In this document: piece after piece, positions 2,744 through 32,680 of the stretch | Layout: each line of letters opens with the position of its first letter | Position numbering within the stretch: position 1 is the stretch's first letter | Source: Escherichia coli | Lineage (GTDB): Bacteria > Pseudomonadota > Gammaproteobacteria > Enterobacterales > Enterobacteriaceae | Direction: 5' to 3' (one strand) | Assembly (NCBI RefSeq): GCF_001677475.2 | Contig: NZ_CP015229.1 | Length of the DNA stretch: 64,000 nucleotides | Translations under genes and position numbers: made by a program | The notes under the pieces: model-generated | Database searches by the model: none | Seen by the model: the letters and a program-made list of their open reading frames with translations, nothing else | What the model was told of the DNA's origin: nothing

Positions 2744-2750
2744 AATACTC

Positions 2751-2778: not shown

Positions 2779-2783
2779 AAAAC

Positions 2784-10600: not shown

Positions 10601-10690
10601 GCCTGATGCGCTACGCTTATCAGGCCTACAAAACCTGTTGAAAATATTGCTTTTGTAGGCCGGATAAGGCGTTCACGCCGCATCCGGCAT
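10601..10690. repeat. REP pair (BIME) downstream of hemN
   Basis: gcctgatgcgctacgcttatcaggcctac and gtaggccggataaggcgttcacgccgcatccggcat. Confidence 0.75.
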
Positions 10691-10722
10691 GAACAAAGAG
10701 CACTTCATCAGCAATCTGAAAC

Positions 10723-10833
10723 TCAACTAAACAGCCCAATCATCGCGGCACACAGCACGGCAGCAACGGCAGTTTGCGGTGTGTGGCTGTCAACTGCGCC
10801 ACTCGATACCAGATTAATTATTGATTCCAGCAT
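10723..10833 (-). CDS. yshB: Small membrane protein YshB (36 aa)
   Basis: My own minus-strand translation gives MLESIINLVSSGAVDSHTPQTAVAAVLCAAMIGLFS; too short for the ORF track. Confidence 0.6.
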   Translation of the reverse strand: MLESIINLVSSGAVDSHTPQTAVAAVLCAAMIGLFS

Positions 10834-10944
10834 AATGACTCTCCCCGTTTTCCGGGCAAGATCATACTGAACTTATCGGAACAGTAAAGCGCAAAATACC
10901 AGCAATTTGCGCTCAATAATCAATCTTTACACACAAGCCGTGAA

Positions 10945-12354
10945 TCACTCCATCCCCAGCTCTTTTAACTTCCGCGTCAGAGTGTTACGCCCCCAGCCGA
11001 GTAGCCGCGCCGCTTCCTGTTTATGTCCTTGCGTATATCGCAACGCGGTCGTCAGTAACGTCCGCTCCAGCTCAGGCTGCGCTTCGGAAAGCAGATTTTG
11101 ATGACCGGAACGCAGCGCCCTGTCTGCCCACTGCGCTAACAGCGTCGCCCAACTGTCCGGTTGCATTTGCGAAGTACTCTCCGCAACCGTTGATTCAAAC
11201 AGTTCACCGGGCAAATCCTGAATCAACACTTCCTGCCCGGCGGCCATCACCGTTAGCCAGCGGCAGGTGTTTTCCAGCTGGCGCACGTTGCCTGGCCACG
11301 CCAGACGCGTCAGAGCAGCTTCGGTTTCCGGATGCAGCAACTTCGCTTCTACGCCCAGTTCACGCGCGGCAACCTGTAAAAAATGGCGCGCCAGACGGGG
11401 AATATCTTCCCGACGTTCGCGCAGCGGCGGCAGATGAACGCGGATAACGTTCAGGCGGTGGAACAGATCCTCACGGAACTTGCCTTCCTGCACCCGCTGT
11501 TCAAGATTCTGGTGAGTGGCAGCGATAATCCGCACATCTACTTTCACCGGCGCATAGCCGCCAACGCGATAAAACTGACCATCTGCCAGTACGCGCAGCA
11601 AACGCGTCTGCACATCCAGCGGCATATCGCCAATTTCATCGAGGAATAATGTACCGCCATCAGCCTGTTCAAAACGCCCCTGACGAATGGTATTCGCGCC
11701 GGTAAACGCGCCTTTCTCGTGGCCAAACAGTTCTGATTCGATCAAATCTTTTGGGATAGCTGCCATATTCAGCGCGATAAACGGCGCTTTGGCGCGCGGA
11801 CTGTGGCGATGCAGGGCATGAGCGACCAGTTCTTTACCGGTACCGGATTCGCCGTTAATCAGCACGCTAATAGAAGAACGCGAAAGCCGACCGATAATAC
11901 GGAACACGTCCTGCATGGCTGGCGCTTCGCCGATGATATCGGTCGTTGGGCCGTTAAGCTGAACATTACGCGGCTGCTGCTGTTCCTGATAATGGCTGAT
12001 GGCGCGCTCAACCAGCGCCACGGCTTCGTCGATATCAAACGGTTTGGGCAGATAATCAAACGCCCCTTGTTGATAGGCGCTGACGGCAGCATCCAGATCG
12101 GAATGTGCGGTCATGATGATGACCGGAAGCATCGGATGGCGCTGTTTAATCTGCTTGAGCAGTGCCAGTCCGTCCATTCCCGGCATACGGATATCTGAAA
12201 GCAGCACATCCGGCGTTTTGCTCGCCAGCGCCTCCAGTACCTCCGCGCCGTTCTCAAATGTCGTACAGGTTAAACCCGCTCCAGCGAGCGCACGTTCAAG
12301 CACCCAACGGATGGAACTATCGTCATCGACTACCCAGACTATCCCTCGTTGCAT
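10945..12354 (-). CDS. glnG: Nitrogen regulation response regulator NtrC (sigma54 activator)
   Basis: 469 aa from ATG at 12354 ([12 protein letters not shown]...); receiver domain, AAA+ GESGTGKE, C-terminal HTH. Confidence 0.95.
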
Positions 12355-12365
12355 AAACGTCACCT

Positions 12366-13415
12366 TTATTTCCTGATAGGCAGGTAAACCGAGAACTCGG
12401 TATGCCCTGGCCAACTGGTAAATTCAATTTTGCCTGAATGCTGATCAATCAAATTACGAGCGATGGATAAGCCAAGCCCGGTGCCACCTTCGCGGCCGCT
12501 GACCATCGGGTAAAACAGCGTATCCTGCAAATGAGGCGGAATGCCCGGCCCGTTATCTTCCACATCAATCCGCGCCGCCAGCCGGTAGCGCTCGCCGTGT
12601 AAGGTCAGTTGAAACGCGGTGCGGGTACGCAGAATGATTTCACCGCCTTCCGGCCCCAGCGCCTGTAGCGCATTGCGCACAATATTCAGGAGCACTTGCT
12701 CAATTTGATCCGGGTCGTGCGCCAGTTCCGGCAGGCTGGGGTCGTAATCACGAATCAACCGCACGTTGTCCGGCAGTTCCATCGACACCAGCGTCACCAC
12801 ACGTTCAGCCACTTTATGAATACTTTCGGTAACGCGCGTACCGGGCAGCTGCGGCCCCAACAGACGGTCGACCAGATTTCGCAGCCGGTCCGCCTGTTCG
12901 ATAATCACTTTGGTATATTCGAGTAGTGACGGGTCAGGTAATGCTTTGCTGAGTAGCTGCGCCGCGCCCCGTAAACCGCCAAGCGGATTTTTAATCTCAT
13001 GTGCCAGGCCGCGCACTAAATCACGGGCAGCAACCTGCTGGGCGTGCTGTAGCTGTTCCTGACTTAAGCGGCGCTGGTTATCCATCGGTGCCATCTCCAG
13101 CAGGATCATGCCGTCCGGCATACGCTGGGCCGTCACAGAAAGGATATGCGAACGCCCGTCGATGACCAGCGTCACTTCGTTATCGGTAAAACCTTGCCCC
13201 GCCTCCAGACTTTCTTGCATCAGCTCGATATTTAATGAGAAGTAGCTCAACAGTTCCGGTAACGGCGTACCAAACAATTTGCGGGAGCTTTGGGCGAGCA
13301 GTTGTTGCGCGGCGGGGTTGGCGTAATGGATCGCCAGGTTGTCATCGATTAACAAAATACTGTTAATCAGCGAGTTGAGGATCTGCCCAGCATCGGGCTG
13401 CGTGCCTGTTGCCAT
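12366..13415 (-). CDS. glnL: Nitrogen regulation sensor histidine kinase NtrB
   Basis: 349 aa; PAS region plus HisKA/HATPase motifs. Confidence 0.95.
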
Positions 13416-13480
13416 AAAGCAGTCTCCTGAACAGGTTGCACCATTTTAGTGCATTATAGCTTTTTACGGATAAAAAGCGC
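13416..13480 (-). promoter_or_regulatory. glnL promoter with overlapping NtrC site
   Basis: Minus strand reads agctataatgcactaaaatggtgcaa: -10-like TATAAT and NtrC-like TGCACTAAAATGGTGCA. Confidence 0.5.
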
Positions 13481-13502
13481 GAAGCATCAGAGAATTGACG
13501 GA

Positions 13503-13529
13503 GAAAAAAGCCCATGCAGAGATGGGCTG
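13503..13529 (-). terminator. glnA terminator
   Basis: Minus-strand hairpin cagcccatctctgcatgggc followed by a T-run. Confidence 0.75.
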
Positions 13530-13733
13530 AAATTTCCACGGCAACTAAAAACCAGTCCCATCAGGCTATTTTATTTGCCATTTTGAACCTGGGCAGTGCT
13601 CGAACTCCTCACGTACCAGTGTACGCTCCGGGTTCTGCGCGCTGTCCGTGTTCAAACTGGCTGCAACAATTACGCCAGATGGGCCTGGTTTGAACCTCCG
13701 GCGTTGTTGCGCCGGGTAGTACAACTTCAACTA
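13503..13733 (-). ncRNA. glnZ: glnA 3'UTR, candidate GlnZ 3'UTR-derived sRNA
   Basis: Inferred from position alone (glnA stop to its terminator); not independently recognisable from sequence. Confidence 0.35.
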
Positions 13734-15143
13734 TTAGACGCTGTAGTACAGCTCAAACTCTACCGGATGCGGAGTCATACGCACGCGGTCATCTTCTTCG
13801 CGACGCAGAGCGATGTACGCATCGATCGCTTCATCCGTGAACACGCCACCGGCTTTCAGGAACTCGCGATCCAGATCCAGTTCGTTCAGTGCTTCTTCCA
13901 GAGAGCCTGCAACCTGTGGGATCTCTTTCGCTTCTTCTGGCGGCAGGTCATACAGGTTTTTGTCCATGGCTTCGCCCGGATGGATCTTGTTCTTGATACC
14001 ATCAAGACCGGCCATCAGCAGGGCAGCAAAGCACAGGTACGGGTTAGCCGCCGGGTCCGGGAAACGTACTTCGATACGACGTGCTTTCGGAGAAGAAACC
14101 ACCGGAATACGGATAGACGCAGAACGGTTACGCGCAGAGTAAGCCAGCATTACCGGTGCTTCGTAGCCCGGGACCAGACGCTTGTAAGAGTTGGTGGTCG
14201 GGTTTGCCAGGGCGTTAATCGCTTTAGCGTGTTTGATTACGCCGCCAATGTAGTACAGCGCCTGCTCAGACAGACCTGCGTATTTATCGCCCGCGAACAG
14301 GTTAACGCCGTTTTTAGACAGTGACATGTGGCAGTGCATACCGGAGCCGTTATCACCGAACATCGGTTTTGGCATAAAGGTCGCAGTTTTACCGAAGCGG
14401 TGCGCTACGTTGTGCACAACATATTTGTAGATCTGAATTTCGTCAGCTTTTTTGGTCATGGTATTGAAGCGGGTAGCCACTTCGTTCTGACCAGCAGTCG
14501 CTACTTCGTGGTGATGGGCTTCAACCACCAGACCCATCTGTTCCATCACCAGACACATTTCAGAACGAATATCCTGAGCAGAGTCTACCGGTGGAACCGG
14601 GAAGTAACCGCCTTTCACTGCCGGACGGTGACCTTTGTTACCACCTTCGTATTGGGTGGAGGAGTTCCATGCGCCTTCGATATCGTCGATAGCAACGTGG
14701 GAACCGGAGATAGATGATCCGAAACGGATGTCATCGAACAGGAAGAATTCAGGTTCTGGCCCGAACAGTACGGTGTCGGCAATGCCAGTGGAACGCAGGT
14801 AATCTTCGGCGCGCTTCGCAATAGAGCGCGGGTCACGGTCATAGCCTTGCAGGGTGCCAGGTTCAAGGATGTCGCAACGGATAATCAGGGTAGAGTCGGC
14901 GAAGAACGGGTCAATCACTGCGGTGGATGCGTCTGGCATCAGCACCATGTCGGATTCGTTAATGCCTTTCCAGCCGCCAATCGAGGAGCCGTCAAACATT
15001 TTGCCTTCTTCGAAGAATTCAGCATTCACCTGATGAGCAGGGATAGTGACGTGCTGTTCTTTACCTTTGGTATCGGTGAAGCGCAAATCAACAAACTTCA
15101 CTTCGTGCTCGTTCAGCATCGTCAGTACGTGTTCAGCGGACAT
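13734..15143 (-). CDS. glnA: Glutamine synthetase
   Basis: 469 aa; sequence matches GlnA (adenylylation-site region present). Confidence 0.97.
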
Positions 15144-15224
15144 ACTTTAACTCTCCTGGATTGGTCATTGTCGTCGTGGTAACGAAATCTGCAATTATTT
15201 TGGCCGTGTCGCCGTAAAAAAGAT

Positions 15225-15370
15225 AAAGCGAAAACTGTGCCAACTTTTAAATTGCCCCTAAAAGGCGTTATCATGCTTAACATCGTGCAAAAGGGCTGCA
15301 CCATGATGTGAATGTTGCACCAATATAGTGCTTCAATGGAAACATTAAGCACCATATTGGTGCAATGACC
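15225..15370 (-). promoter_or_regulatory. glnA control region: sigma54 promoter glnAp2 and upstream NtrC sites
   Basis: Minus strand TTGGCACAGTTTTCGCT (-24 GG / -12 GC); NtrC-type palindromes gcaccatattggtgca (15350..15365) and tgcaccatgatgtgaatgttgcacca. Confidence 0.8.
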
Positions 15371-15515
15371 TTTGGATAACCCTTTTTATGCTCCGTGAAA
15401 GCGATCACAAAGGGACTCTGCAATACTTGTTTGCGGAGGATGTTTGTGATCCTGTTTTGTAGTGCGATTAATCCGTGTACAATAACGCGCTATTTCTAAT
15501 GCCTGAGGCAAAGTT

Positions 15516-17339
15516 GTGATCGAAAAATTGCGTAATATCGCCATCATCGCGCACGTAGACCATGGTAAAACCACCCTGGTAGACAAGCTGCTCCAACAAT
15601 CCGGTACGTTCGACTCTCGTGCCGAAACCCAAGAGCGCGTGATGGACTCCAACGATTTGGAGAAAGAGCGTGGGATTACCATCCTCGCGAAAAACACCGC
15701 TATCAAATGGAATGATTACCGTATCAACATCGTTGATACCCCGGGGCACGCCGACTTCGGTGGTGAAGTTGAACGTGTAATGTCCATGGTAGACTCAGTG
15801 CTGCTGGTGGTTGACGCATTTGACGGCCCGATGCCGCAAACGCGCTTCGTAACCAAAAAAGCGTTTGCTTACGGCCTGAAGCCGATTGTTGTTATCAACA
15901 AAGTTGACCGCCCTGGCGCGCGTCCTGACTGGGTTGTGGATCAGGTATTCGATCTGTTCGTTAACCTCGACGCGACCGACGAGCAGCTGGACTTCCCGAT
16001 CGTTTACGCTTCTGCGCTGAACGGTATCGCGGGTCTGGACCACGAAGATATGGCGGAAGACATGACTCCGCTGTATCAGGCGATTGTTGACCACGTTCCT
16101 GCGCCGGACGTTGACCTTGACGGTCCGTTCCAGATGCAGATTTCTCAGCTCGATTACAACAGCTATGTTGGCGTTATCGGCATTGGCCGCATCAAGCGCG
16201 GTAAAGTGAAGCCGAACCAGCAGGTTACTATCATCGATAGCGAAGGCAAAACCCGCAACGCGAAAGTCGGTAAAGTGCTGGGCCACCTCGGTCTGGAACG
16301 TATCGAAACTGATCTGGCGGAAGCTGGCGATATCGTTGCGATCACGGGCCTTGGCGAACTGAACATTTCTGACACCGTTTGCGACACGCAAAACGTTGAA
16401 GCGCTGCCGGCACTCTCCGTTGATGAGCCGACCGTTTCTATGTTCTTCTGCGTTAACACCTCACCGTTCTGCGGTAAAGAAGGTAAGTTCGTAACGTCTC
16501 GTCAGATCCTGGATCGTCTGAACAAAGAACTGGTACACAACGTTGCGCTGCGCGTAGAAGAAACCGAAGACGCCGATGCGTTCCGCGTTTCTGGTCGTGG
16601 CGAACTGCACCTGTCTGTTCTGATCGAAAACATGCGTCGTGAAGGTTTCGAACTGGCGGTATCCCGTCCGAAAGTTATCTTCCGTGAAATCGACGGTCGT
16701 AAACAAGAGCCGTATGAAAACGTGACTCTGGACGTTGAAGAACAGCATCAGGGTTCTGTAATGCAGGCGCTGGGCGAACGTAAAGGCGACCTGAAAAACA
16801 TGAATCCAGACGGTAAAGGCCGCGTACGTCTCGACTACGTGATCCCAAGCCGTGGTCTGATTGGCTTCCGTTCTGAGTTCATGACCATGACTTCCGGTAC
16901 TGGTCTGCTGTACTCCACCTTCAGCCACTACGACGACGTACGTCCGGGTGAAGTGGGTCAGCGTCAGAACGGCGTACTGATCTCTAACGGTCAGGGTAAA
17001 GCGGTCGCGTTCGCGCTGTTCGGTCTGCAGGATCGCGGTAAGCTGTTCCTCGGTCACGGTGCAGAAGTTTACGAAGGTCAGATTATCGGTATTCATAGCC
17101 GCTCTAACGACCTGACTGTAAACTGCCTGACCGGTAAGAAACTGACCAACATGCGTGCTTCCGGTACTGACGAAGCCGTTGTTCTGGTTCCGCCTATCCG
17201 CATGACTCTGGAACAAGCTCTGGAGTTCATCGATGATGACGAACTGGTAGAAGTGACTCCGACCTCTATCCGTATTCGTAAACGTCACCTGACGGAAAAT
17301 GATCGTCGTCGCGCTAACCGCGCACCGAAAGACGATTAA
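15516..17339 (+). CDS. typA: Ribosome-associated translational GTPase BipA/TypA
   Basis: 607 aa from GTG at 15516; G-domain [14 protein letters not shown]. Confidence 0.95.
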
Positions 17340-17361
17340 TTTCGTTTTTTAGCCATAAAAA

Positions 17362-17389
17362 ACCTGCCAGCGATGGCAGGTTTTTTTTT
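17362..17389 (+). terminator. Rho-independent terminator after typA
   Basis: aacctgccagcgatggcaggtt followed by T9. Confidence 0.8.
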
Positions 17390-17555
17390 ACCTGTCGTGA
17401 GCGCACACCAATGCGAGTATCTCCCTTATAAGTCTGTGATTACGTCAATAGAGAGCTTTGTCACAATTATCTGCAAAGTCATACGCCGTTAATTGCTTTC
17501 TTTTTTGGCGTAAGCGTAAGATGCTTCATCTGGTTTAAACCAAAAGGATTAAACA

Positions 17556-18266
17556 ATGGCGGAGAATCAATCCACCGTAGAAAATGCAAAAGAGAAACTG
17601 GATCGGTGGTTGAAAGATGGCATCACCACGCCGGGTGGAAAACTCCCTTCAGAAAGAGAGCTGGGAGAACTGCTGGGCATTAAACGTATGACGCTGCGCC
17701 AGGCGTTGTTGAACCTCGAGGCAGAATCCAAAATCTTCCGTAAAGATCGTAAGGGGTGGTTCGTGACCCAGCCGCGATTTAATTACAGTCCGGAGCTGTC
17801 GGCGAGCTTTCAGCGGGCCGCAATTGAGCAAGGGCGAGAGCCTTCCTGGGGGTTTACCGAGAAAAACCGTACCAGCGATATTCCCGAGACGCTCGCGCCA
17901 CTGATTGCAGTGACGCCATCAACTGAACTCTATCGCATCACCGGCTGGGGGGCGCTGGAAGGACATAAAGTTTTCTATCACGAAACATATATTAATCCTG
18001 AAGTTGCTCCGGGTTTTATTGAACAACTTGAAAACCACTCATTTTCTGCAGTCTGGGAAAAGTGCTACCAAAAAGAGACGGTAGTAAAAAAATTGATTTT
18101 CAAACCCGTCAGAATGCCGGGCGATATCAGCAAGTATCTTGGCGGTTCTGCGGGTATGCCTGCGATCTTAATTGAAAAGCATCGCGCCGACCAGCAAGGC
18201 AATATTGTCCAGATAGATATTGAATATTGGCGATTTGAGGCCGTAGACCTCATCATTAATCTGTAG
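17556..18266 (+). CDS. yihL: GntR-family transcriptional regulator YihL
   Basis: 236 aa; N-terminal HTH plus effector-binding domain. Confidence 0.85.
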   Translation: MAENQSTVENAKEKLDRWLKDGITTPGGKLPSERELGELLGIKRMTLRQALLNLEAESKIFRKDRKGWFVTQPRFNYSPELSASFQRAAIEQGREPSWGFTEKNRTSDIPETLAPLIAVTPSTELYRITGWGALEGHKVFYHETYINPEVAPGFIEQLENHSFSAVWEKCYQKETVVKKLIFKPVRMPGDISKYLGGSAGMPAILIEKHRADQQGNIVQIDIEYWRFEAVDLIINL

Positions 18267-20621: not shown

Positions 20622-20626
20622 TTAAT

Positions 20627-20649
20627 GGCCGGATGTGCTTAATCCGGCC
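20627..20649. terminator. Hairpin between convergent yihN and the DeoR regulator gene
   Basis: ggccggat gtgctta atccggcc. Confidence 0.5.
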
Positions 20650-20680
20650 AACGAAAACCGTATCAACCGAAGTTTCAATT

Positions 20681-21469
20681 TCAGGATACTTCTTGCTCAG
20701 CAACCACCAGTTCAACATTCTCTTCACTTAACAACTGGCAGAAAGAATTGGGAGGCGGGGCATCAGTAAAAAAAGCCCTGACATTCCGTGCATTGCCAAT
20801 TGAAACGGCAGCAGACGCGGCAAACTTCGTATGATCGGCCACTAACAATGTATTCCGCGCATGTTTAATCATCGTTCTTGCGACTAACGCTTCATTGACA
20901 TCAAATTCCAGTAGGGTGCCGTCATGTTCAATGGCACCTATACTGGTGATTAAATAATCTGCGCGGAAGCCTTCAATAAAATCCACGGCTCCTGGGCCGA
21001 TAATCCCGCCGTTATGAGCGCGTAAAGTGCCTCCCGGCACCATCACTTCAATATCCTGATTCTTATAAAGAATCTGTGCCACACGTAGGCTGTTAGTGAT
21101 AATGCGTAAATCACGACGGTTGAGTAATGCCCTGGCAACGGCTTCTACGGTTGTACCGATGGTGATAAAGACGGTACAGCGTTCGGGAAGGTAATCGGCG
21201 ACTGCCTCAGCGATCGCCCGTTTCTCGGCGGTGAGCGAAAGTTCCCGTTGCTCAAAAGCGGTATTCATGACGCTGGAGACGCGCCCGGCCCCTCCATGAT
21301 GACGGGTGATCAACCCCTGCTCACTGAGTTTTCGGATATCCCGGCGCACGGTTTGCGTTGAAACATCCAGCAGTTGTGCCAGTTCTTCAATATTCATATA
21401 ACCGCGTTCTGCGATTAGATGAACGAGTTGGTCATGGCGTGGATTACCTGTCACTTCGATGATACTCAT
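20681..21469 (-). CDS. DeoR-family transcriptional regulator (YihW/CsqR-like)
   Basis: 262 aa; N-terminal HTH (STQTVRRDIRKL) and DeoR C-terminal sugar-phosphate-binding domain; related to but not the same as K-12 YihW as I remember it. Confidence 0.85.
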   Translation of the reverse strand: MSIIEVTGNPRHDQLVHLIAERGYMNIEELAQLLDVSTQTVRRDIRKLSEQGLITRHHGGAGRVSSVMNTAFEQRELSLTAEKRAIAEAVADYLPERCTVFITIGTTVEAVARALLNRRDLRIITNSLRVAQILYKNQDIEVMVPGGTLRAHNGGIIGPGAVDFIEGFRADYLITSIGAIEHDGTLLEFDVNEALVARTMIKHARNTLLVADHTKFAASAAVSIGNARNVRAFFTDAPPPNSFCQLLSEENVELVVAEQEVS

Positions 21470-21508
21470 GAATACTCCCTTGCCCCTCCTCGGTATATGT
21501 TTACCATT

Positions 21509-22405
21509 TTACGCATAAAGTGACAAAAATGATTCGGTTTGCTCACGATTAGGAATGCCGGCCCGACCGCCAGGCTGGGTACATTTCATCGCGGCAACCG
21601 CACTGGCAAAACGAATAGCCTCTTTTGTTGGCATTTTTTCTGCCAACGCTACCGCGAGTGCGCCGTGAAAAACATCGCCTGCTCCAGTGGTATCAACCAC
21701 ATTGACAGAAAATGCCTCCTGTTGACACAAATGATCATCTTCAATCCACAACGATCCTTCAGAACCCAGCGTAACATACACTTTACCTGCTGTTTGTGTC
21801 GTTGCCTGGAACAAACCTTCTTCAGGTGACTGCAGGCCAGTCATGCGTTTCAGCCCCGGTGTTGAGAACACGGCGTGATCGGCAAGCGCGACAAGTGGAG
21901 AAATATCCTGCGGTGTCATATCGGCGTCTAAAAGCGTTGTCACCCCCGCAAGGCGCGCTAGCGAGAATGCTTTTTCAGTACCGCTATGCCAGCGAACATC
22001 GGCCAGAATCAGATCATAACGAGAGAAATCGATCGCTTCTAACCATTCGGCATCAGTACCGAGATCGGGACTTGGATAATTAACGATAATCCGTTCGCCA
22101 TGCTGATCAACGAGGATCGCTGATTGCGACGAACGGGCGTTAGGATATCGGCGGCAAAATGCGGTATTGACGCCCCAACCCTCAAGTTCTGCAAGTAAGG
22201 TATTTCCACAACTGTCATCGCCGACGCGACCGATGAAATCAACCTCCACGCCAAGCTTTGCGATTGCAACAGCGGCTGTTGCTGCCGGGCCGCCACCAAT
22301 CTCAAGATAATGATTTGCCTGATATTTCCCGCCGCCATCCGGCAGAGTGAGCAAAGAATAAATCCTGTCCTGAACTGTGATACCCACGCATGCAATTTTT
22401 GTCAT
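21509..22405 (-). CDS. PfkB-family sugar kinase (YihV-like)
   Basis: 298 aa from ATG at 22405 with AGGA RBS; PfkB signature [17 protein letters not shown]; ORF track start 22456 is a probable over-extension. Confidence 0.85.
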
Positions 22406-22577
22406 ATTTGTCTTGTCCTGTTTAATTTTGTCGTCTTTGGTCAATTTAAATGACACAAATGATCAAATTAGTGATGTGTGTCGTGTTTTTGAACATAAAT
22501 TACAAATATGCTCAAAAACAGACGAAAACGAATTTTCAATTGTCATTATTTTGTCAATGTCAGACAGGAGAGTATTC
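22406..22577. promoter_or_regulatory. AT-rich divergent promoter/operator region between the kinase and reductase genes
   Basis: 172-nt AT-rich spacer with recurring TTTGTC / GACGAAAACGA-type motifs; candidate operator for the adjacent DeoR regulator. Confidence 0.4.
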
Positions 22578-23456
22578 ATGGCAACCATTGCATTTCTCGG
22601 GCTGGGGCAGATGGGTAGCCCAATGGCTAACAATCTATTGCGAAAAGGGCATTCATTGCAGGTATTTGATGTCAATGCACAGGCCGTCGATGCGCTAGTT
22701 ACGCAGGGGGCCACTGCGGCACAAACCCCAGCGGAAGCGGCAGCAGGCGCTGAATTTATCATCACTATGCTTCCCAATGGTGACATTGTTCGACAGGTTC
22801 TGTTGGGGGAAAAAGGCGTCTGTGAGGCTGTTTCATCTGACGCGTTATTGATTGATATGTCGACTATTCATCCCTTACAGACCGATGCATTAATACGGGA
22901 GTTACAAGAAAAAGGCATCAGTATGATGGACGCCCCCGTGGGCAGAACATCCGTGAATGCGATTGATGGCACATTGCTGATTTTAGCGGGTGGCACTGAT
23001 GAGCAGATTGCGCGTGCACGCCCGATTCTCATGTGCATGGGTAATGAGCTGGTCGAGGCTGGCGGCCCAGGAATGGGGATCCGCGTGAAGCTAATTAACA
23101 ACTATATGAGCATTGCGCTTAATGCGCTGTCCTCCGAGGCCGCTGTGTTATGTGAGTCACTGGGATTAAATCTTGATGTCGCAATTAAGGTGATGAGTGG
23201 TACGGCAGCAGGGAAAGGACATTTTACGACCACCTGGCCTGGCAAAGTGCTGAAAGGCGATCTTTCACCCGCCTTCATGGTGGATCTGGCGTTGAAAGAT
23301 CTGCGTATTGCAGTTGACGTCGCTCGGGAGACGGGGGCACCGCTCAATATGGGGATTGCAGCAGAAAGTTATTACGCCGCAGCAAGTCAAGACGGCAAAG
23401 GGCGGCAGGACTGGAGCGCCCTGCTAAATCAGGTTCGCCAGCAGGCTGGTCTTTAA
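22578..23456 (+). CDS. NAD(P)-dependent beta-hydroxyacid dehydrogenase family reductase (YihU / GarR-like)
   Basis: 292 aa from ATG at 22578 with RBS CAGGAGAG; dinucleotide fold [13 protein letters not shown]; ORF track start 22377 overlaps the divergent gene and is rejected. Confidence 0.85.
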
Positions 23457-23480
23457 TTTTATCTATTAACAGGAGTTTCT

Positions 23481-24368
23481 ATGTCATCCCACTTCACCCC
23501 ATTTACGCTGAAAGATATCTCCCGCCCAGGTGGTGGATTCGCCATGTTAGCTGTCGATCAGCGTGAGGCCATGCGCCTGATGTTTGCGGCAGCAGGGCAG
23601 CCCAAACCCATCGCCGACAGTGTACTCACCGATTTTAAAGTTGCCGCGACCCGAATCCTTTCTCCTTATGCTTCTGCCGTTCTGGCGGATAAACAATTTT
23701 GTCTTGAGCAAATAGTCGAGCAGGGCGCTGTTGCTAATTCTTGCGGCCTGATTGTCGCTGCCGATCTTTTTATCCCAGGTAATGGCATCCCGGTTGATAG
23801 CGTTGAAATAGATATGTCCGTCGACCCGCATAAAGCCCGTGAAATGGGGGCTAAGGCAATGAAATTACTTGTACTCTGGCGTGAAGATGAACCCGCAGAG
23901 GAACGTCTGGCAATGGTTGATAAATTTGTTCGTCGCTGCCGTAGTGCCGGACTGGTTAGCATTATTGAACCTGTGGTGCGTCCACCTCGTCGCGGTTGGG
24001 ACTTTGATCGTGAAAGCGCCATTGCCGCGGCCGCCGCAGAGCTTGGTGGAACAGAGGCTGATCTTTACAAAGCCGAGATGCCATTAGGGGGCAAAGGCGA
24101 TGAAAAAACCTTACTTGCCGCCTGTCAGCAACTTAACGATCAGATGAAGATGCCGTGGGTAATTCTTTCTTCTGGCGTTGATGCCGATATTTTTGGCCGT
24201 GCAGTAAGTATTGCCATGAAAGGTGGGGCGTCGGGCTTCCTGGCTGGACGAGCGGTTTGGGCGTCGGTTGTTGGTGCACAAGATCCACAAACTATGCTGC
24301 GCGATGTCTCCGTTCCACGCTTGCAACGGCTGGCTGAAATTGTCGATGAAGGTATCGCGCAACGCTAA
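23481..24368 (+). CDS. Class I aldolase family protein (YihT / sulfofructosephosphate-aldolase-like)
   Basis: 295 aa; shares blocks [45 protein letters not shown] with K-12 YihT as I remember it. Confidence 0.85.
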
Positions 24369-24400
24369 TCCCCTATGGATATCGATTCTGGAGAATAACA

Positions 24401-25411
24401 ATGGATAAAAGTACCCAGGTTTTATTTTCAGATATTGGGAAAGTCACCACTCAATATGTTGAAGTACCACACCAGGAACTTAAACCGCACGAAGTGCGGA
24501 TTGCGCCTGTGTTCTATGGGATATGCGGTTCGGATCTGCATGTTCTGAAAGGCGGTCATCCGTTTGCCAAACCACCTGTCGTCCCCGGTCATGAAATTGC
24601 AGCGCGCGTTGCGGAAGTTGGCAGCGACGTTAAAAATGTACAGCCGGGCGATCATGTTGTGGTCGATCCCATCATGGCTTGCATGGAATGCCGAGCCTGC
24701 AAAGCAGGACGTTTTAATCTTTGTGAACCACCGCAGGTTGCTGGTTTTCGCGCACCGGGCTTTGCTCGCTCACAACACATTGTTCCTGCGCGTAATTGCC
24801 ATGTCGCACCAGCCTCTTTACCGCTAAAAGTGTTAGCCTTTGCCGAACCGGCGGCTTGTGCTCGTCACTGCGTTAACCGAATGCCGAAAGCTTCTCTGGA
24901 AAGCGTACTGGTGATTGGTGCCGGAACGATAGGCTTATCCATCGTGCAGGCACTGCGCATTATGGGGGCAGGTAAGATTACCGTGATTGAACCTGACGCT
25001 GCCAAACGCGCGCTGGCGTTAAAGCTGGGCGCAGCAGAAGTTTGGGCACCAGGTGAGCTGGCCGCAGATGTGCGATTTACGGGGGCGATTGATGTCGTTG
25101 CAGCGCAGGCCACGCTTAACGATGCATGTACCCGTGTATATGCCGGAGGCACCGTCGTGTGCATGGGCGTACCAAGTGGGCCGCGTGAAATACCATTACC
25201 TATGATGCAACGTTTCGAGCGTGACTTGCTCAACTCTGGCATGTACATCCCTGAAGATTTCGATGCTGTTATCGAATGGCTGGCGGATGGGCGGTTTGAT
25301 ACCAGTGAACTGGTTACCGATTTATTTGCCATTGAGGATGCAGCGGCGGCATTCGAACGCGCGCAGCAAAATGACTCCATAAAGGTCATGCTGCAATTTG
25401 CGCCGGAATGA
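24401..25411 (+). CDS. Zn-dependent medium-chain dehydrogenase (polyol / sorbitol-dehydrogenase-like)
   Basis: 336 aa; catalytic-Zn Cys (GICGSDLHV), GHE motif (PGHEIAARV), structural-Zn C-x2-C-x2-C-x7-C (CMECRACKAGRFNLC), NAD site GAGTIGL. Confidence 0.85.
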   Translation: MDKSTQVLFSDIGKVTTQYVEVPHQELKPHEVRIAPVFYGICGSDLHVLKGGHPFAKPPVVPGHEIAARVAEVGSDVKNVQPGDHVVVDPIMACMECRACKAGRFNLCEPPQVAGFRAPGFARSQHIVPARNCHVAPASLPLKVLAFAEPAACARHCVNRMPKASLESVLVIGAGTIGLSIVQALRIMGAGKITVIEPDAAKRALALKLGAAEVWAPGELAADVRFTGAIDVVAAQATLNDACTRVYAGGTVVCMGVPSGPREIPLPMMQRFERDLLNSGMYIPEDFDAVIEWLADGRFDTSELVTDLFAIEDAAAAFERAQQNDSIKVMLQFAPE

Positions 25412-25480
25412 TTTTCTAAATCTCTGTCTGGCGCTGCGTCACGTCAGCGCCACCCTACAACAATTAAAAAGGACACTGCG

Positions 25481-26914
25481 ATGAGTCAAATCACCAGTCC
25501 TGCAACTTATTCAATTAGTCGGCCACAGGACGTAATTGATATTGTTAATAAGAACTCTGCAATCAACACCAGTATCGGCGTTATTTTTATTGCTTTGGGC
25601 GGCATATTGATTGATGCCTACCAGGCGGCGATGGTGGGGTTTGGTAATAAATACATTGCCGCTCAATTCGGCATTTCGCCGGGTCTTGCTGCAACCGTCA
25701 ATGCATCAGTATTAATCGCCGCGTTAATTGGCGGTTTATTAGCGAACCGAGTAATAAACCGCTTTGGGCAAAAGCGGGCATTTATTATTGGCATGGGGCT
25801 GTGCACCATCGGTGCTGCAGCGGTAGCTATTGCTCCCAGTATCTGGTGGGTGCTGGTGTGCCGCGTCATCATGGGCTTTGGTTTAGGCATCGACTTCCCT
25901 TTGGCAACCAATGCCGTGGCAGAGCTTCGTGGTTCAACGTCGAAGAAAACCGGAACGTCGGTCAACCTCTGGCAAATGGCCTGGTATGTTTCGACAACCG
26001 TTGTTTATTTGGTGCTTTTGCCGCTGCTTCTGTCGGGTATCGCTGAAGAACAATTGTGGCGTTACGGAATATTCATCGGAGCTATTTTTGCAGTCATCTT
26101 CATGATTTTGCGTTACTTCTTTATTGGTGAATCCGCAATGTGGGCTGCACGCGTCGGGCGTTACCAGGAAGCGTGCGACATTCTGGGAAAACGTTATGGT
26201 GTTCAGGCTCGCGTTGCGGCATCGGGTACAACAGAAGCGAAATTCTCGGAAAAAGCAGAGAATAAATACAGTGGTGGATATGGCATCTTATTTAATGATC
26301 GTTACCGCAAACGCACCATTCTTGGTTGTGTCGTGGCAACCATGCAGGCGTGGCAATATAACGCCGTAGGTGTTTATCTTCCTCTTACGTTGGCGGGAAT
26401 AATAAGTGGCGGGCTTACTGGCGCGTTGACCGGTTCTGCCGTCGTGAATGCCCTTTGTGGGGTGACAGGTGGGATGATCGGCTCGTTTATTCTCCAACGA
26501 CTGGGTACTCGCCGACAGTCGATGTATGGATTTGCTGTTGTGACCTTAGCATTGCTGTCGTTAGGCGCACTGGCAACGACTAATCCCTGGCTGTCTTTAG
26601 GGTTATTGGGATCAATTATTTTCTTCCATTCAGCGGGTCCTGGTGGGCTGGGCATGACCATTGCCACACTCTCTTATCCTCCCGCTATTCGTCCTACTGG
26701 GGTCGGATTTGCCCGCGCTATTATGCGCACAGGGGCAATTGCAGGACTCATTTTCTGGCCGATGCTGTGGGGTACGTTGAAAACTGAAGCGTTTTATTGG
26801 TTGGCAATTGTGCCATTCCTGGGGTTCCTGACCTGCGTATTGATTAATTGGGAACCTTTGGGAGCAAATGTTGATGCTGAGGATGCAGAGGTTCTGGCTG
26901 AATTGAAGAAATAA
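25481..26914 (+). CDS. MFS transporter (sugar / metabolite:H+ symporter-like)
   Basis: 477 aa; 12 predicted TM segments; MFS motif-A-like NRFGQKRA. Confidence 0.85.
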   Translation: MSQITSPATYSISRPQDVIDIVNKNSAINTSIGVIFIALGGILIDAYQAAMVGFGNKYIAAQFGISPGLAATVNASVLIAALIGGLLANRVINRFGQKRAFIIGMGLCTIGAAAVAIAPSIWWVLVCRVIMGFGLGIDFPLATNAVAELRGSTSKKTGTSVNLWQMAWYVSTTVVYLVLLPLLLSGIAEEQLWRYGIFIGAIFAVIFMILRYFFIGESAMWAARVGRYQEACDILGKRYGVQARVAASGTTEAKFSEKAENKYSGGYGILFNDRYRKRTILGCVVATMQAWQYNAVGVYLPLTLAGIISGGLTGALTGSAVVNALCGVTGGMIGSFILQRLGTRRQSMYGFAVVTLALLSLGALATTNPWLSLGLLGSIIFFHSAGPGGLGMTIATLSYPPAIRPTGVGFARAIMRTGAIAGLIFWPMLWGTLKTEAFYWLAIVPFLGFLTCVLINWEPLGANVDAEDAEVLAELKK

Positions 26915-26951
26915 ATTAATGCGCATCGGCTTAAACCGATGCGCATTAATT
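26915..26951. other. Perfect 15-bp inverted repeat between the two transporter genes
   Basis: aattaatgcgcatcgg cttaaa ccgatgcgcattaatt; no following T-run. Confidence 0.6.
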
Positions 26952-27012
26952 CAAACTGCCCACGTTTAGTGGTTCGTATCCCAGATTTCTCGCCTACCAG
27001 GAGAGGAAAATT

Positions 27013-28362
27013 ATGTCTGAAAAGTTACCCGCACCGCGTGAAGGGCTTTCCGGTAAAGCCATGAGACGTGTCGTTATGGGCAGTTTCGCAGGCGCGTTAA
27101 TGGAATGGTATGACTTCTTTATTTTTGGCACGGCAGCAGGACTGGTATTTGCACCGCTGTTTTATCCAGACAGCGATCCTTTTATAGGTCTTATAGCTTC
27201 CTTTGCGACCTTTGGTGTCGGTTTTCTGACTCGTCCTTTAGGTGGCATCGTCTTTGGTCATTTTGGCGATAAAATCGGGCGAAAAATAACACTTATCTGG
27301 ACGCTGGCTATTGTCGGTTGCTCCACATTTTTGATTGGTTTTATTCCGACGTATCAGGAAATTGGCATTTGGGCACCGCTTGTATTAATGGTGCTGCGTT
27401 TGATTCAGGGCTTTGGTCTTGGTGGCGAGTACGGCGGAGCGGCATTGATGACCATAGAATCAGCGCCCGAATCCCGACGCGGATTTTTAGGTTCACTCCC
27501 GCAAACGGCTGCGTCTGTGGGTATTATGCTGGCAACCGGTATTTTTGCTCTCTGTAACCATTTTCTTACTTCGGAGCAGTTTCTCTCCTGGGGATGGCGC
27601 ATTCCGTTTTGGCTTTCTGCGGTGATGTTGATCGTTGGGCTGTTTATCCGCCTGCATACCGAAGAAACGCTGGATTTTCAAAAGCAAAAAACGACGAATA
27701 ATAAAGAAAAGTCCGTTCCTCCGTTGATTGAATTATTCAAAAAACATCCACGAAATATTTTATTGGCACTGGGTGCGAGGCTGGCGGAAAGTGTCTCCTC
27801 TAATATTATTAACGCCTTTGGTATTGTCTATATTTCCAGCCAATTAGCATTGTCGCGAGATATTCCCCTGACGGGTATGTTGATTGCCTCGGCGATCGGT
27901 ATTTTCAGTTGTCCATTGGTTGGATGGTTATCAGATCGTATAGGTCAAAAAAGTCTGTATTTGTCGGGAGCAGGATTTTGTGTCCTGTTCGCGTTTCCTT
28001 TCTTCTTATTACTGGATAGCAAAAGTACGCTCATCATCTGGTGCAGTATGATCCTCGGCTACAACTTAGGTCCGACGATGATGTTTGCCGTGCAGCCAAC
28101 ACTTTTCACCCGCATGTTCGGTACCAAAGTACGATATACCGGCCTTTCTTTTGCTTATCAATTTTCCGCGATTCTTGGCGGACTAAGCCCCCTTATCGCC
28201 TCAAGTTTGCTGGCGCTAGGGGGAGGAAAACCGTGGTATGTCGCTCTGTTTTTATTTGCTGTCTCAGTTCTTTCCTTTGTTTGCGTCTGGCTGATTGAGC
28301 CGACCGATGAACAAGAAACCGCTTCTTACCGCTACATCAGGGAACAATCTCATGAAAACTGA
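27013..28362 (+). CDS. MFS transporter, metabolite:H+ symporter (MHS) family
   Basis: 449 aa; MHS-type motifs GHFGDKIGRK and GGEYGGAALM. Confidence 0.85.
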   Translation: MSEKLPAPREGLSGKAMRRVVMGSFAGALMEWYDFFIFGTAAGLVFAPLFYPDSDPFIGLIASFATFGVGFLTRPLGGIVFGHFGDKIGRKITLIWTLAIVGCSTFLIGFIPTYQEIGIWAPLVLMVLRLIQGFGLGGEYGGAALMTIESAPESRRGFLGSLPQTAASVGIMLATGIFALCNHFLTSEQFLSWGWRIPFWLSAVMLIVGLFIRLHTEETLDFQKQKTTNNKEKSVPPLIELFKKHPRNILLALGARLAESVSSNIINAFGIVYISSQLALSRDIPLTGMLIASAIGIFSCPLVGWLSDRIGQKSLYLSGAGFCVLFAFPFFLLLDSKSTLIIWCSMILGYNLGPTMMFAVQPTLFTRMFGTKVRYTGLSFAYQFSAILGGLSPLIASSLLALGGGKPWYVALFLFAVSVLSFVCVWLIEPTDEQETASYRYIREQSHEN

Positions 28363-29239
28363 ACGAAAAAACGAGCATTACCTGGCGCTACAACAGGCGT
28401 TTGACGCGCCATGGCCTGGGCCTGTAGGAGAGTTAGTGACGCTGGAAAAAGGCAATATTCACCTGCAGATTTATCCGCATGATGGTGCCAGGATAACCTC
28501 GTTAAAGGCATTTGGTTCTGAAGTATTACGCCAATGGCAGCCGCAGCGCAGAGCTTTTCAGTATGGCTGTTTCCCAATGGTGCCGTGGGCAGGGCGACTG
28601 GGGAATGCGACGCTGAATGCTGGTGGGCAATGTTATTCTTTACCCGCCAATAAACCACCACATGCGTTGCATGGTATGGCTTGTTACTCAACGTGGGAAA
28701 TCATCGACAAAACAATAGATTCCCTGACTTTACGTATGCCCCTGGCTTCACCGTGGCCCTGGCAAGGGGAAGTGATTCAGACTTTTTTGCTGGAGAACGA
28801 TGCGCTGGTTTTGCAACTGGAAATCCATTCACATACCGATACATTCCCGGCCTCTGCAGGCTGGCATCCGTGGTTTGCGAAAAAGCTGACTCCGCAAAAT
28901 ACAGAATCGTTGCAGGTGCTTTTTGATGCGGACTGGCAAGAGGAAGCGGGTAGTGATGAACTGCCAACTGGAAATCGCATCTCTCCTCAAGCTGGTCCCT
29001 GGGATGACTGTTTTGGTTTTTATGACGGGGTGAAGGTTAAGTTACTGTGGCCTGGTAAACTCACGATGACCATGACCTCTTCTGCAAACAGTCTGGTGGT
29101 ATTTGATAAACAGCCCGATGCCACCTGTGTTAATCCGCTTACTCAGGCACCTAACGCAATAAATCTAACGCCGGAATTGGTGACATCAGATAAGCCGCTG
29201 GTCATCGAAACTCGTTGGCAATTTACACCTGAATCTTAA
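28352..29239 (+). CDS. Aldose 1-epimerase (mutarotase) family protein (YihR-like)
   Basis: 295 aa from ATG at 28352 (MKTERKNEHY...) with RBS AGGGA; overlaps the upstream transporter by 11 nt; the 28295 TTG start is less likely. Confidence 0.8.
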   Translation: MKTERKNEHYLALQQAFDAPWPGPVGELVTLEKGNIHLQIYPHDGARITSLKAFGSEVLRQWQPQRRAFQYGCFPMVPWAGRLGNATLNAGGQCYSLPANKPPHALHGMACYSTWEIIDKTIDSLTLRMPLASPWPWQGEVIQTFLLENDALVLQLEIHSHTDTFPASAGWHPWFAKKLTPQNTESLQVLFDADWQEEAGSDELPTGNRISPQAGPWDDCFGFYDGVKVKLLWPGKLTMTMTSSANSLVVFDKQPDATCVNPLTQAPNAINLTPELVTSDKPLVIETRWQFTPES

Positions 29240-29249
29240 CCATTCATCT

Positions 29250-29290
29250 ATTGCGAAAAAGCCAGTGAAATTACTCTGCTTTTTCGCAAT
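29250..29290 (+). terminator. Strong hairpin downstream of the epimerase gene
   Basis: attgcgaaaaagc cagtgaaattactct gctttttcgcaat (13-bp perfect stem); no clean T-run. Confidence 0.5.
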
Positions 29291-29379
29291 CAGCATCACA
29301 AGATTACCCTTATTGCCACATAGCCAAACCCATCCTTTCCCGCTACAGTTAATTTCTTGTGGCGCGAAAGGAGGCAAAA

Positions 29380-32302: not shown

Positions 32303-32680
32303 CAGGTCATTTACATTAGCCTCTGACTATTCCGGTTATATTGAATAAGAACTCTATTAATTTTTATTCTTCGTTGGCACCATACGTGTCTTGCTACATC
32401 ACTGTTCAGGAGCATTTAAATATTATTTGTAGAGGTGAGTGGCAATTATCGCCGATAATGCTTAATTCATCATCTTACTTCAGGTTTGAGCGATTTTTGA
32501 TAGTCAAAACCCCCTATGGTGCCATACTTTTCTCATAAATATTTTTAAAATCTATAGCTAACTAACATTATGCAAAGATAATGGGCTGGCACCATTGTCA
32601 GTATCATTCATTTACTGCTTCTAGATGTTGTAAATAATTATGTTGTATGTTTGCTCTTAAACCGTGGGAAGGAGGCTGTA

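Follow-up and report, generated by a model that had tools for sequence, protein, structure and literature searches.

Among the described counterparts of the locus studied here is the sulfo-EMP (sulfo-Embden–Meyerhof–Parnas) cassette of Escherichia coli K-12, reportedly described by Denger in 2014. In K-12, the interval between yihN and yihX holds ompL-yihOPQRSTU / yihV-csqR. Sulfo-EMP clusters feature a sulfoquinovose-sulfofructose isomerase (YihS, PF07221, or the analogous SqvD), a kinase, an aldolase, and a sulfolactaldehyde reductase; a sulfoquinovosidase (YihQ, glycoside hydrolase family 31) is common, not universal. A second form of the locus, the "short yih cassette (yihTUVW)", was reported by Kaznadzey et al. 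(2025; PMC12608037) from strain Nissle 1917 and many pathogenic strains. It occupies the same position in reversed orientation, is scattered over the E. coli phylogeny and its phylogroups, and was called truncated and probably out of use for sulfoquinovose. Here we analyzed a window, i.e., one whole stretch of 64,000 nucleotides (64 kb), from an Escherichia chromosome (E. coli, contig NZ_CP015229.1). It extends from polA to glnA-typA-yihL-yihM-yihN, continues with an eight-gene interval, and then runs through yihX-yihY-dtd-fabY. We find in this interval (20673–29312) a catabolic module of eight genes, intact and self-contained, in which a zinc-dependent dehydrogenase stands at the place of the K-12 isomerase YihS.

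All eight open reading frames (ORFs) between yihN and yihX are intact, and their starts and ends agree with the RefSeq annotation (same locus of ATCC 25922). On the minus strand lie the genes for a DeoR/GlpR-family regulator homologous to CsqR (YihW) (20681–21469; 72% identity over 260 aa), which matched only DeoR-family models of NCBIfam, and for a YihV-type, i.e., sulfofructose kinase-like, PfkB kinase (21509–22405; 67% identity to YihV). Divergently, on the plus strand, follow the genes for a YihU-type reductase of the beta-hydroxyacid-dehydrogenase family (sulfolactaldehyde reductase-like; 22578–23456; 72% identity to YihU) and a YihT-type class I aldolase of the DeoC/LacD family (23481–24368; 67% identity to YihT). 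The four identities to the K-12 proteins are full-length and ungapped. Further downstream on the same strand lie the genes for a Zn-dependent medium-chain dehydrogenase (ZnDH; 24401–25411), a major facilitator superfamily (MFS) transporter (MFS1; 25481–26914), a transporter resembling metabolite:H+ symporters (MHS; 27013–28362), and an aldose-1-epimerase-like protein (Epi; 28352–29239; Pfam PF01263). The Epi gene starts with an ATG at 28352 and the stop codon of the MHS gene ends at 28362, an overlap of 11 nt. The gene inventory and this overlap are as given in an earlier description made from the sequence alone, hereafter the original prediction.

The module shares its slot and its layout with the K-12 cassette: regulator and kinase are divergent from reductase, aldolase, and a next enzyme, each locus includes two transporters and a mutarotase-family gene, and kinase, aldolase, reductase, and regulator are 67–72% identical, with all published sulfonate contacts kept. 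Since the gene orders of K-12 (csqR-yihV | yihU-yihT-yihS) and the window (DeoR-kinase | reductase-aldolase-ZnDH) line up, ZnDH occupies the yihS position. However, YihS, YihQ, the GPH-family transporters YihO and YihP, and OmpL of K-12 had no tblastn match anywhere in the window at E ≤ 1e-3, the two transporters come from other MFS families, and the module is inverted relative to its flanks. Epi is only 27% identical to YihR (over 164 aa) and carries Asn in place of the Glu of the YihR "VEP" motif. Both the resemblance of the four core proteins to YihW/V/U/T, combined with divergence from them, and the absence of the K-12 front end had been claimed originally, and both claims stand. Since neither an isomerase nor a sulfoquinovosidase was found in the window or beside the module elsewhere, the cluster should not be classed as a sulfoquinovose cassette. 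Of the other sulfo-EMP features, the kinase triad with the catalytic D244, the class I aldolase pocket, and the sulfolactaldehyde reductase are recognizable; by sequence, the lower half of the module groups with the sulfo-EMP enzymes and would work as they do. A recent origin from the K-12 cassette by truncation or inversion is ruled out by sequence comparison, because the proteins diverge by 28–33% from K-12 and the window aldolase is nearer to the module aldolase of Rhodopseudomonas (73%) than to K-12 YihT (67%).

We searched 5426 complete E. coli genomes. The whole 8.7-kb interval was found in 1325 of them (~24%) at 95–99% identity, e.g., in ATCC 25922 and BEN2908, and the ZnDH-MFS1-MHS-Epi block in 1327 genomes of the same collection, O104:H4 among them. 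The K-12-type yihQ-yihR-yihS stretch (at least 80% coverage) was present in 3886 genomes; both forms combined amount to 96% of the genomes, a figure that sums the separate counts. In E. coli, the slot has two forms, which behave like alternative alleles. The originally claimed replacement of the K-12 sulfoquinovose locus by an alternative cluster is thus borne out by the comparison of the yihN-yihX slot, while "paralogous", the term first applied to it, is not the best word. Because the block counts of 1325 and 1327 are nearly equal, the four core genes are practically always accompanied by the downstream four in E. coli; in other words, the "short cassette" is practically always a cassette of eight genes.

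The locus and the short yih cassette of the literature are one and the same: slot, reversed orientation, and scatter over phylogroups agree, and the YihW protein of Nissle 1917 is 72% identical to CsqR (PMC12608037), the same value as for the window regulator. The published form differs in comprising four genes, whereas four more are present here. As only K-12 yih genes served as queries in that study, the downstream four genes were invisible to it; the dehydrogenase, the two transporters, and the epimerase-like gene are mentioned neither in its text nor in its supplement, and conservation of the eight-gene set outside Escherichia is not reported there. The original prediction holds in part; the cluster is not unknown, as its DeoR-kinase-reductase-aldolase portion has been published, and the four downstream genes go unmentioned. 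The locus itself is already known; our additions are a corrected gene inventory, a module that extends across phyla, and the exchange of YihS for a dehydrogenase. Unlike the K-12 cassette, the locus in Nissle 1917 was not induced by sulfoquinovose (RNA-seq and quantitative reverse-transcription PCR), and growth of the strain on sulfoquinovose was nonetheless comparable to that of K-12 (PMC12608037). The four downstream genes are absent from the searchable differential-expression lists of the same paper, whose supplement contains no absolute values, so that silent and constitutive genes look the same there. In electrophoretic mobility shift assays (EMSA), Nissle YihW bound the intergenic DNA between kinase and reductase more weakly than CsqR did, and sulfoquinovose released it less completely (PMC12608037).

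Three minor observations concern the distribution of the locus. Two genomes (NZ_CP178597.1 and NZ_AP045796.1) carry a long K-12-type cassette with an extra gene, annotated as a sulfite exporter TauE/SafE family protein, inside yihQ-yihS, which would be a third variant. The top matches listed among the 5426 genomes reach 98.9% identity over hemN-glnGLA-typA (9154–17339) and 99.0% over 20622–29358; only 10 records match the former stretch at 99% or more, and the source lineage is without a very close complete-genome relative in the collection. In E. coli isolates from inflammatory bowel disease, a "sulfoquinovose metabolism" neighborhood co-segregates with epithelial invasion; the cassette variant is not specified (PMC11879602).

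Structures of the K-12 enzymes allowed us to compare their sulfonate-binding residues with those of the module. Sharma et al. (2021; PMC8006165) described the contacts K27-N109-R138 together with D13, S95, D162, and D244 in YihV; the Schiff-base lysine K193 with S226, S227, R253, and, via water, A26 in YihT; and, in YihU, N174 and S178 as well as the R123 backbone. In pairwise and multiple alignments, the window kinase keeps the K27-N109-R138 triad and D13, S95, D162, and D244. Likewise, K193, S226, S227, R253, and A26 are retained in the aldolase, and R123, N174, and S178 in the reductase. The versions from Citrobacter, Budvicia, and Vibrio retain the published contacts as well. The reductase furthermore passes the NCBIfam sulfolactaldehyde-reductase equivalog NF012005 (580 bits; cut-off 348) and scores only ~216–220 bits, under the cut-offs, on tartronate-semialdehyde-reductase models. 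Judged from these residues and scores, sulfonate specificity of the E. coli form of the core is well supported.

ZnDH (RefSeq WP_000357981 in ATCC 25922) has the complete set of motifs that had been attributed to it. The catalytic zinc ligands are Cys42, His64, Glu65, and Glu149, the four structural-zinc cysteines are Cys94, Cys97, Cys100, and Cys108, and the Rossmann motif GAGTIG (residues 173–178) is followed by the acidic Glu197 after beta-2. Across 17 orthologues, these zinc, glycine-motif, and Glu197 positions show little or no variation, and from Glu197 the enzyme is read as preferring NAD. The AlphaFold model (predicted local distance difference test, pLDDT, 90.8) yielded query-normalized TM-scores of 0.80–0.86 to sorbitol, L-idonate, RspB, and L-arabinitol dehydrogenases. 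By sequence, the nearest solved proteins are RspB (4ilk), the putative zinc-binding dehydrogenase 4ej6, whitefly ketose reductase (1e3j), and threonine dehydrogenases, followed by sorbitol dehydrogenase, GatD, L-arabinitol 4-dehydrogenase, and L-idonate 5-dehydrogenase. The fold search ranked 4ejm/4ej6, ECK1772 (5vm2), L-idonate 5-dehydrogenase (6dkh), TADH, threonine dehydrogenases, RspB, and sorbitol dehydrogenase, all at 22–28% identity, and provided no closer relative than the sequence search. Threonine dehydrogenases and plain alcohol dehydrogenases are as near to ZnDH (22–28%) as the polyol and sugar-acid relatives. With the latter, ZnDH shares the fold, both zinc sites, and the NAD-type Rossmann motif; it differs in being only 24–28% identical and in forming a tight family of its own with an AGFRAPGF segment. 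Zn medium-chain relatives usually show a DGGF-type motif at this position, and RspB carries VLGVHADGGF there in our alignment.

RspB and the ketose reductase/sorbitol, L-idonate 5-, GatD, and L-arabinitol dehydrogenases oxidize the carbon beside a terminal CH2OH group to give a 2-ketose, and several of them take anionic substrates. Three ZnDH orthologues are annotated by the Joint Genome Institute (JGI) as L-gulonate 5-dehydrogenase. L-gulonate corresponds to glucitol in which C6 is a carboxylate, and its oxidation yields fructuronate; by analogy, the corresponding sulfonate reaction would convert 6-deoxy-6-sulfo-D-glucitol to sulfofructose. Gene order supports an entry role of ZnDH. Since a polyol-type Zn dehydrogenase stands at the isomerase position, a dehydrogenase that supplies the keto-sugar to the kinase and aldolase, as originally suggested, would be the most economical reading. 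That the fold can bind sulfonates is illustrated by HpsP of Roseobacteraceae (PDB 8wwd), a Zn medium-chain dehydrogenase acting on a sulfonated polyol, which oxidizes the primary hydroxyl of S-2,3-dihydroxypropanesulfonate (S-DHPS) to sulfolactaldehyde (PMC11131964). HpsP differs from ZnDH in its action on a C3 primary hydroxyl, in sequence (~25% identity), and in its location, which is in DHPS-degradation operons and not beside a kinase and an aldolase. Aldose 1-dehydrogenase activity was also considered for ZnDH and rejected, as the module encodes no lactonase or dehydratase.

Orthologues of ZnDH form a tight family at 55–93% identity, separated by a gap from the next relatives (≤49%). Among the 80 loci listed by a scan of the genome collection, which applied generic peptide patterns from the ZnDH alignment, only about nine were true orthologues. 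Wherever the context could be read, each orthologue was surrounded by the same gene set and by unrelated flanks. Citrobacter spp. carry all eight genes in the yihN/yihX slot as in E. coli. In Rhodopseudomonas palustris BisB18, Rhodovastum, and Pleomorphomonas, a DeoR gene is followed by kinase-aldolase-ZnDH-MFS1-reductase-MHS-Epi; the same set is found with slightly changed order and orientation in Telmatospirillum, without Epi in a Streptomyces sp., and up to the contig end in a metagenome-assembled genome (MAG) of Propionibacteriaceae. Vibrio rhodolitus and Budvicia follow the order of E. coli and encode a class II instead of a class I aldolase, and Tenebrionibacter has the order reductase-ZnDH-MFS1-MHS-Epi-kinase-class II aldolase. 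Minimal versions occur in Jejubacter (kinase, class II aldolase, DeoR, ZnDH, and an MHS-type transporter only) and Prauserella, whose ZnDH is 45% identical (DeoR, kinase, a class I aldolase 56–58% identical to that of the window, ZnDH, and an MHS-type transporter). Because the set recurs across phyla with unrelated flanks, the eight genes form, by this comparative evidence, one module, and the grouping proposed from the E. coli sequence becomes much stronger.

The lack of the K-12 front end extends to these genomes. BLASTP detected no YihS or YihQ homologue within 10 kb in twelve module loci, four further loci held no homologue of YihS, YihQ, YihO, YihP, or OmpL covering >60% of the protein, and neither PF07221 nor PF02952 occurred in the Pfam context tables of module loci. 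Sharma et al. (2023; PMC10665668) described hybrid sulfo-EMP1/2 clusters in which class II replaces class I among the sulfofructose-phosphate aldolases. The class II aldolases of the Vibrio, Budvicia, Tenebrionibacter, and Jejubacter modules represent the same non-orthologous swap. However, sulfo-EMP1 and sulfo-EMP2 each have a sulfoquinovose isomerase (PF07221 or PF02952; PMC10665668), whereas the module lacks both and contains ZnDH in their place. Compared with Rhodopseudomonas, the window proteins are conserved to different degrees, with identities of 73% for the aldolase, 70% for ZnDH, 70% for MFS1, 67% for MHS, and 52% for Epi, and only 25–31% for kinase, reductase, and regulator. This identifies aldolase-ZnDH-transporters-Epi as the deeply conserved block, and on sequence grounds there were at least two exchanges of the kinase and at least one of the reductase among modules.

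Three loci show additional genes at their borders. Citrobacter sp. R56 has an insertion (15360–18098) that separates the epimerase-like gene from yihX and encodes a MisL/AIDA-type autotransporter adhesin. The cluster of Jejubacter calystegiae (12571–15329), which is without beta-hydroxyacid reductase, MFS1, and Epi, adjoins genes for an enolase-superfamily dehydratase-like protein, an aldehyde dehydrogenase, and a GntR regulator. In Prauserella alba (2188–6150), genes for fructuronate-reductase-like and L-idonate-5-dehydrogenase-like proteins and a second MHS transporter adjoin the cluster, with a TRAP transporter on the opposite side; this is a sugar-acid context.

Regarding the transporters, MFS1 yielded only sub-threshold NCBIfam matches, to the aromatic-acid/H+ and sugar-porter families. 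The best families for the MHS-like protein are TIGR00883 (406.8 bits; cut-off 443.45) and the shikimate-transporter model (409.7 bits; cut-off 538), both likewise sub-threshold. Among solved structures, both transporters match phosphate:H+ transporters best, and only weakly. The MHS family (TC 2.A.1.6) mostly carries organic anions and carboxylates. As an MHS-type protein is the only transporter left in the minimal Jejubacter and Prauserella clusters, comparative gene content suggests that it is the importer. Among 13 loci with the reductase region on the contig, MFS1 accompanies a beta-hydroxyacid-type reductase in 11, and the other two have neither; in Rhodopseudomonas, Rhodovastum, Telmatospirillum, and the Propionibacteriaceae MAG, the genes of MFS1 and the reductase share 4 nt. 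Because of this co-occurrence and overlap, we propose that MFS1 exports the reductase product, a function that K-12 YihP is thought to have.

In E. coli, Rhodopseudomonas, and Rhodovastum, the MHS and Epi genes are translationally coupled; Streptomyces lacks Epi. Epi matches PF01263 (E = 5e-22) over residues 28–214 only, i.e., the N-terminal two thirds. It keeps the two His motifs of mutarotases; its Asn261 (nt 29132–29134; "CVNPL") aligns with the Glu of "AVEPM" in YihR, which we take to be the catalytic base of mutarotases. Asn is also found at this position in Citrobacter, Vibrio, and Sutterella, and Glu in Budvicia, Tenebrionibacter, Rhodopseudomonas, and Pleomorphomonas.

From these data we infer a route, including the direction of both transporters and the substrate, in which a functional sulfo-EMP lower pathway is fed by an NAD-type polyol dehydrogenase and served by transporters for uptake and product export; we judge this reading to have an even chance of being correct. 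An anionic six-carbon substrate would be taken up, probably via the MHS-like transporter, and ZnDH would oxidize the hydroxyl next to its terminal CH2OH to yield a 2-ketose. Our guess for the substrate is 6-deoxy-6-sulfo-D-glucitol (or -mannitol), which ZnDH would convert to 6-deoxy-6-sulfofructose. The YihV-type kinase would then phosphorylate C1 of the ketose, the YihT-type aldolase would cleave the product to dihydroxyacetone phosphate (DHAP) and sulfolactaldehyde, and the YihU-type reductase would form DHPS for export by MFS1. The reductase would spend the NADH made by ZnDH, so that the hexitol route would be redox-neutral inside the operon. A CsqR-like repressor would control the divergent promoters. 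The more specific version, i.e., an unrecognized entry into sulfoglycolysis in which ZnDH makes sulfofructose from a reduced or modified sulfosugar, itself an unrecognized nutrient, in a redox-balanced sequence that releases DHPS, is possible, and we advance it tentatively. The missing induction by sulfoquinovose in Nissle 1917 (PMC12608037) fits a different substrate.

Several points weigh against this reading. We know of no natural 6-sulfo-hexitol, and a full-text literature search with names of reduced sulfoquinovose and 6-sulfo-hexitols returned no paper. The presence of Epi, whose gene is coupled to that of the MHS transporter, points to a cyclic reducing sugar in the pathway and is the chief observation left unexplained by a route from an alditol alone. 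With only 22–28% identity to every solved relative, the substrate of ZnDH cannot be read from homology, and HpsP (~25% identity) is as close to it as the polyol dehydrogenases. R253 of the aldolase also binds phosphate and is thus weak evidence of a sulfonate. Furthermore, the alphaproteobacterial and actinobacterial kinases and reductases are 25–34% identical to YihV and YihU and lack the sulfonate residues, with R/T/G at the triad positions of the kinase and S/G at positions 174/178 of the reductase; NCBIfam scans of these proteins revealed no family that separates sulfonate from carboxylate substrates. Sulfonate specificity is thus indicated only for the gammaproteobacterial and Telmatospirillum kinase type, and for the distant forms only the high conservation of the remaining block would argue for it.

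Neither a dehydrogenase-fed sulfo-EMP variant nor the eight-gene module was found described in the literature searched, outside of which lie most subscription journals, so that this absence is no proof; a dehydrogenase-type variant appears in neither the 2026 review nor the class II aldolase paper nor the CsqR phylogeny paper, and the RefSeq accessions of the six module proteins other than regulator and reductase returned no literature match. The sulfofucose pathway of Paracoccus was considered as a match and rejected, since it is of the Entner–Doudoroff type with a lactonase and a dehydratase.

Among the alternatives, a route for free sulfoquinovose ranks first, although we regard it as unlikely. 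The MHS transporter would import sulfoquinovose, Epi would handle the anomers, and either reduction by an unlinked host aldose reductase with subsequent oxidation by ZnDH, or an unprecedented redox isomerization by ZnDH on its own, would lead to sulfofructose, with the rest as in K-12. An aldo-keto reductase gene next to Zn dehydrogenase genes is known from the E. coli ydj cluster, and a mutarotase-like gene belongs to the module of most genomes, both of which speak for such a route. However, the first-step reductase is encoded in none of the modules examined, and E. coli Epi lacks the Glu of the mutarotase "VEP" motif. To our knowledge, a single NAD-dependent dehydrogenase cannot isomerize an aldose alone by any known mechanism of its family. 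The physiology of Nissle 1917, which has the module and lacks YihS, points in both directions: growth on sulfoquinovose about like K-12 and the release of YihW from DNA by sulfoquinovose in vitro speak for this route, whereas the locus is not induced by sulfoquinovose and its four extra genes do not appear among the searchable differentially expressed genes (PMC12608037).

We consider it quite unlikely that the module degrades carboxylate sugar acids. Here, ZnDH would oxidize an aldonate of the L-gulonate or L-idonate type to a hexulosuronate, in a manner resembling the ydj cluster; kinase and aldolase would yield DHAP and tartronate (or malonate) semialdehyde, and the reductase would form glycerate or 3-hydroxypropionate. 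In the ydj cluster, the kinase acts at C1 of the ketose and the aldolase releases DHAP. This cluster, as summarized in PMC9602453, offers the closest parts list, with the DeoR regulator YdjF, the PfkB kinase YdjH, the aldolase YdjI, the Zn dehydrogenases YdjJ and YdjL, and the MFS transporters YdjE and YdjK, and its kinase and aldolase prefer sugars with an anionic, carboxylate terminus. It differs from the module in its aldo-keto reductase YdjG, its class II aldolase, the lack of a YihU-type reductase, and best substrates that are C7–9 carboxylates. The likeness is one of architecture and not of close proteins, given that ECK1772 (5vm2), presumably YdjJ, is 26% identical to ZnDH.

Further support for a carboxylate substrate comes from RspB as the best solved sequence match of ZnDH, the three L-gulonate 5-dehydrogenase labels, the best-scoring models of the MHS transporter (shikimate and metabolite:H+ symport), and the sugar-acid genes and TRAP transporter that adjoin the Prauserella cluster. 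In addition, the alphaproteobacterial and actinobacterial kinases and reductases are without the YihV/YihU sulfonate residues, and the distant reductases score equally on tartronate-semialdehyde- and sulfolactaldehyde-reductase models. For the E. coli form, however, the balance of the same models is clearly on the sulfolactaldehyde side (580 versus ~216–220 bits), and every published YihV/YihU sulfonate contact is kept in E. coli, Citrobacter, Budvicia, and Vibrio. Moreover, a dedicated second transporter tied to the reductase would be superfluous in a pathway forming glycerate, and the regulator, which shares 72% identity with CsqR, is responsive to sulfoquinovose in vitro (PMC12608037).

Improbable, in our view, is an assignment of ZnDH to the C3 end of the pathway, where it would interconvert sulfolactaldehyde and DHPS in the manner of HpsP or act on another C3 sulfonate, and a ketose such as sulfofructose would be imported directly. 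HpsP catalyzes the reaction from S-DHPS to sulfolactaldehyde (PMC11131964), its structure 8wwd is among both the sequence and the fold matches of ZnDH, and the minimal Jejubacter and Prauserella clusters combine kinase, aldolase, ZnDH, and one transporter without a YihU-type reductase. In 11 of 13 loci, however, ZnDH occurs together with a beta-hydroxyacid-type reductase and would be redundant; its identity to HpsP is no better than that of other family members; and it stands at the YihS position. Least of all do we expect a decaying remnant, i.e., a truncated, non-functional yihTUVW with four unrelated neighbors, close to the interpretation in PMC12608037: the missing sulfoquinovose induction and the weaker DNA binding of the regulator reported there and the absence of yihQ, yihS, yihO, and yihP from the window agree with it, whereas eight intact ORFs at least 95% identical across ~1,325 genomes, the same eight genes together in distant phyla with unrelated flanks, 28–33% protein divergence from K-12, which does not match a recent deletion derivative, and the blindness of K-12 queries to the four extra genes speak against it, the first two strongly.

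Our analysis reinterprets a locus of ~24% of complete E. coli genomes as an intact, widely conserved eight-gene pathway and not as a truncated leftover. Its carriers include the probiotic Nissle 1917, ATCC 25922, B2 extraintestinal pathogens, avian and urinary pathogens, and O104:H4, and the module also occurs in bacteria from soil, freshwater, and the sea that represent two or more phyla. It provides a testable answer to two points left open in PMC12608037, i.e., the function of the short cassette and the growth of Nissle on sulfoquinovose. If the substrate is a sulfonate, the module would contain a new entry enzyme of sulfoglycolysis and perhaps point to an unknown natural organosulfonate, with a bearing on sulfur cycling and on the supply of DHPS to sulfide-producing gut bacteria. 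If it is a carboxylate, the YihV-, YihT-, and YihU-like proteins of the module would have another substrate, which matters for annotation, as the reductase is named sulfolactaldehyde reductase by its model.

At the borders of the module, only ~50 nt per edge are shared with K-12-type genomes. At the left junction (20622–20672), the common ~50 nt include a terminator-like hairpin of yihN (20627–20649), and K-12-type genomes align there only to positions 1–51 of the interval. At the right junction, upstream of yihX (29313–29358), they match interval positions 8692–8737 at 100%. With 49.6%, the G+C content of the interval is no different from that of the flanks. The successive intergenic gaps measure 39, 172, 24, 32, 69, 98, −11, and 140 nt. 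The 172-nt gap is the divergent promoter/operator region between kinase and reductase (22406–22577), which has a conserved block in common with the K-12 yihU/yihV intergenic region, …ATAAATTACAAATA.G.TCAAAAACAGAC…, plus TGTCA/TGACA repeats. These elements fit the published EMSA results, and a scan of the region for consensus promoters found nothing.

Two hairpins on the plus strand structure the downstream part of the module. A perfect 16-bp hairpin (26914–26953; −24.7 kcal/mol, z = −7.6) lies right behind the MFS1 stop codon and has no T-run on this strand. It is kept in position, not in sequence, in Citrobacter, Budvicia, and Vibrio, and this recurrence suggests a conserved internal attenuator or mRNA stabilizer between reductase-aldolase-ZnDH-MFS1 and MHS-Epi. 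The second hairpin, 3' of Epi (29250–29290; −18.7 kcal/mol, z = −4.95), is likely the 3' end of the transcription unit.

Outside the module, a low-G+C ORF (~37–41%) of 614 aa follows fabY (32651–34495) and had no NCBIfam match. Its 2.4-kb region is present with at least 80% coverage in 1061 genomes of E. coli, strain 042 among them, at a best identity of only 97.4%, and the ORF is annotated in those genomes as a hypothetical protein beside a transposase.

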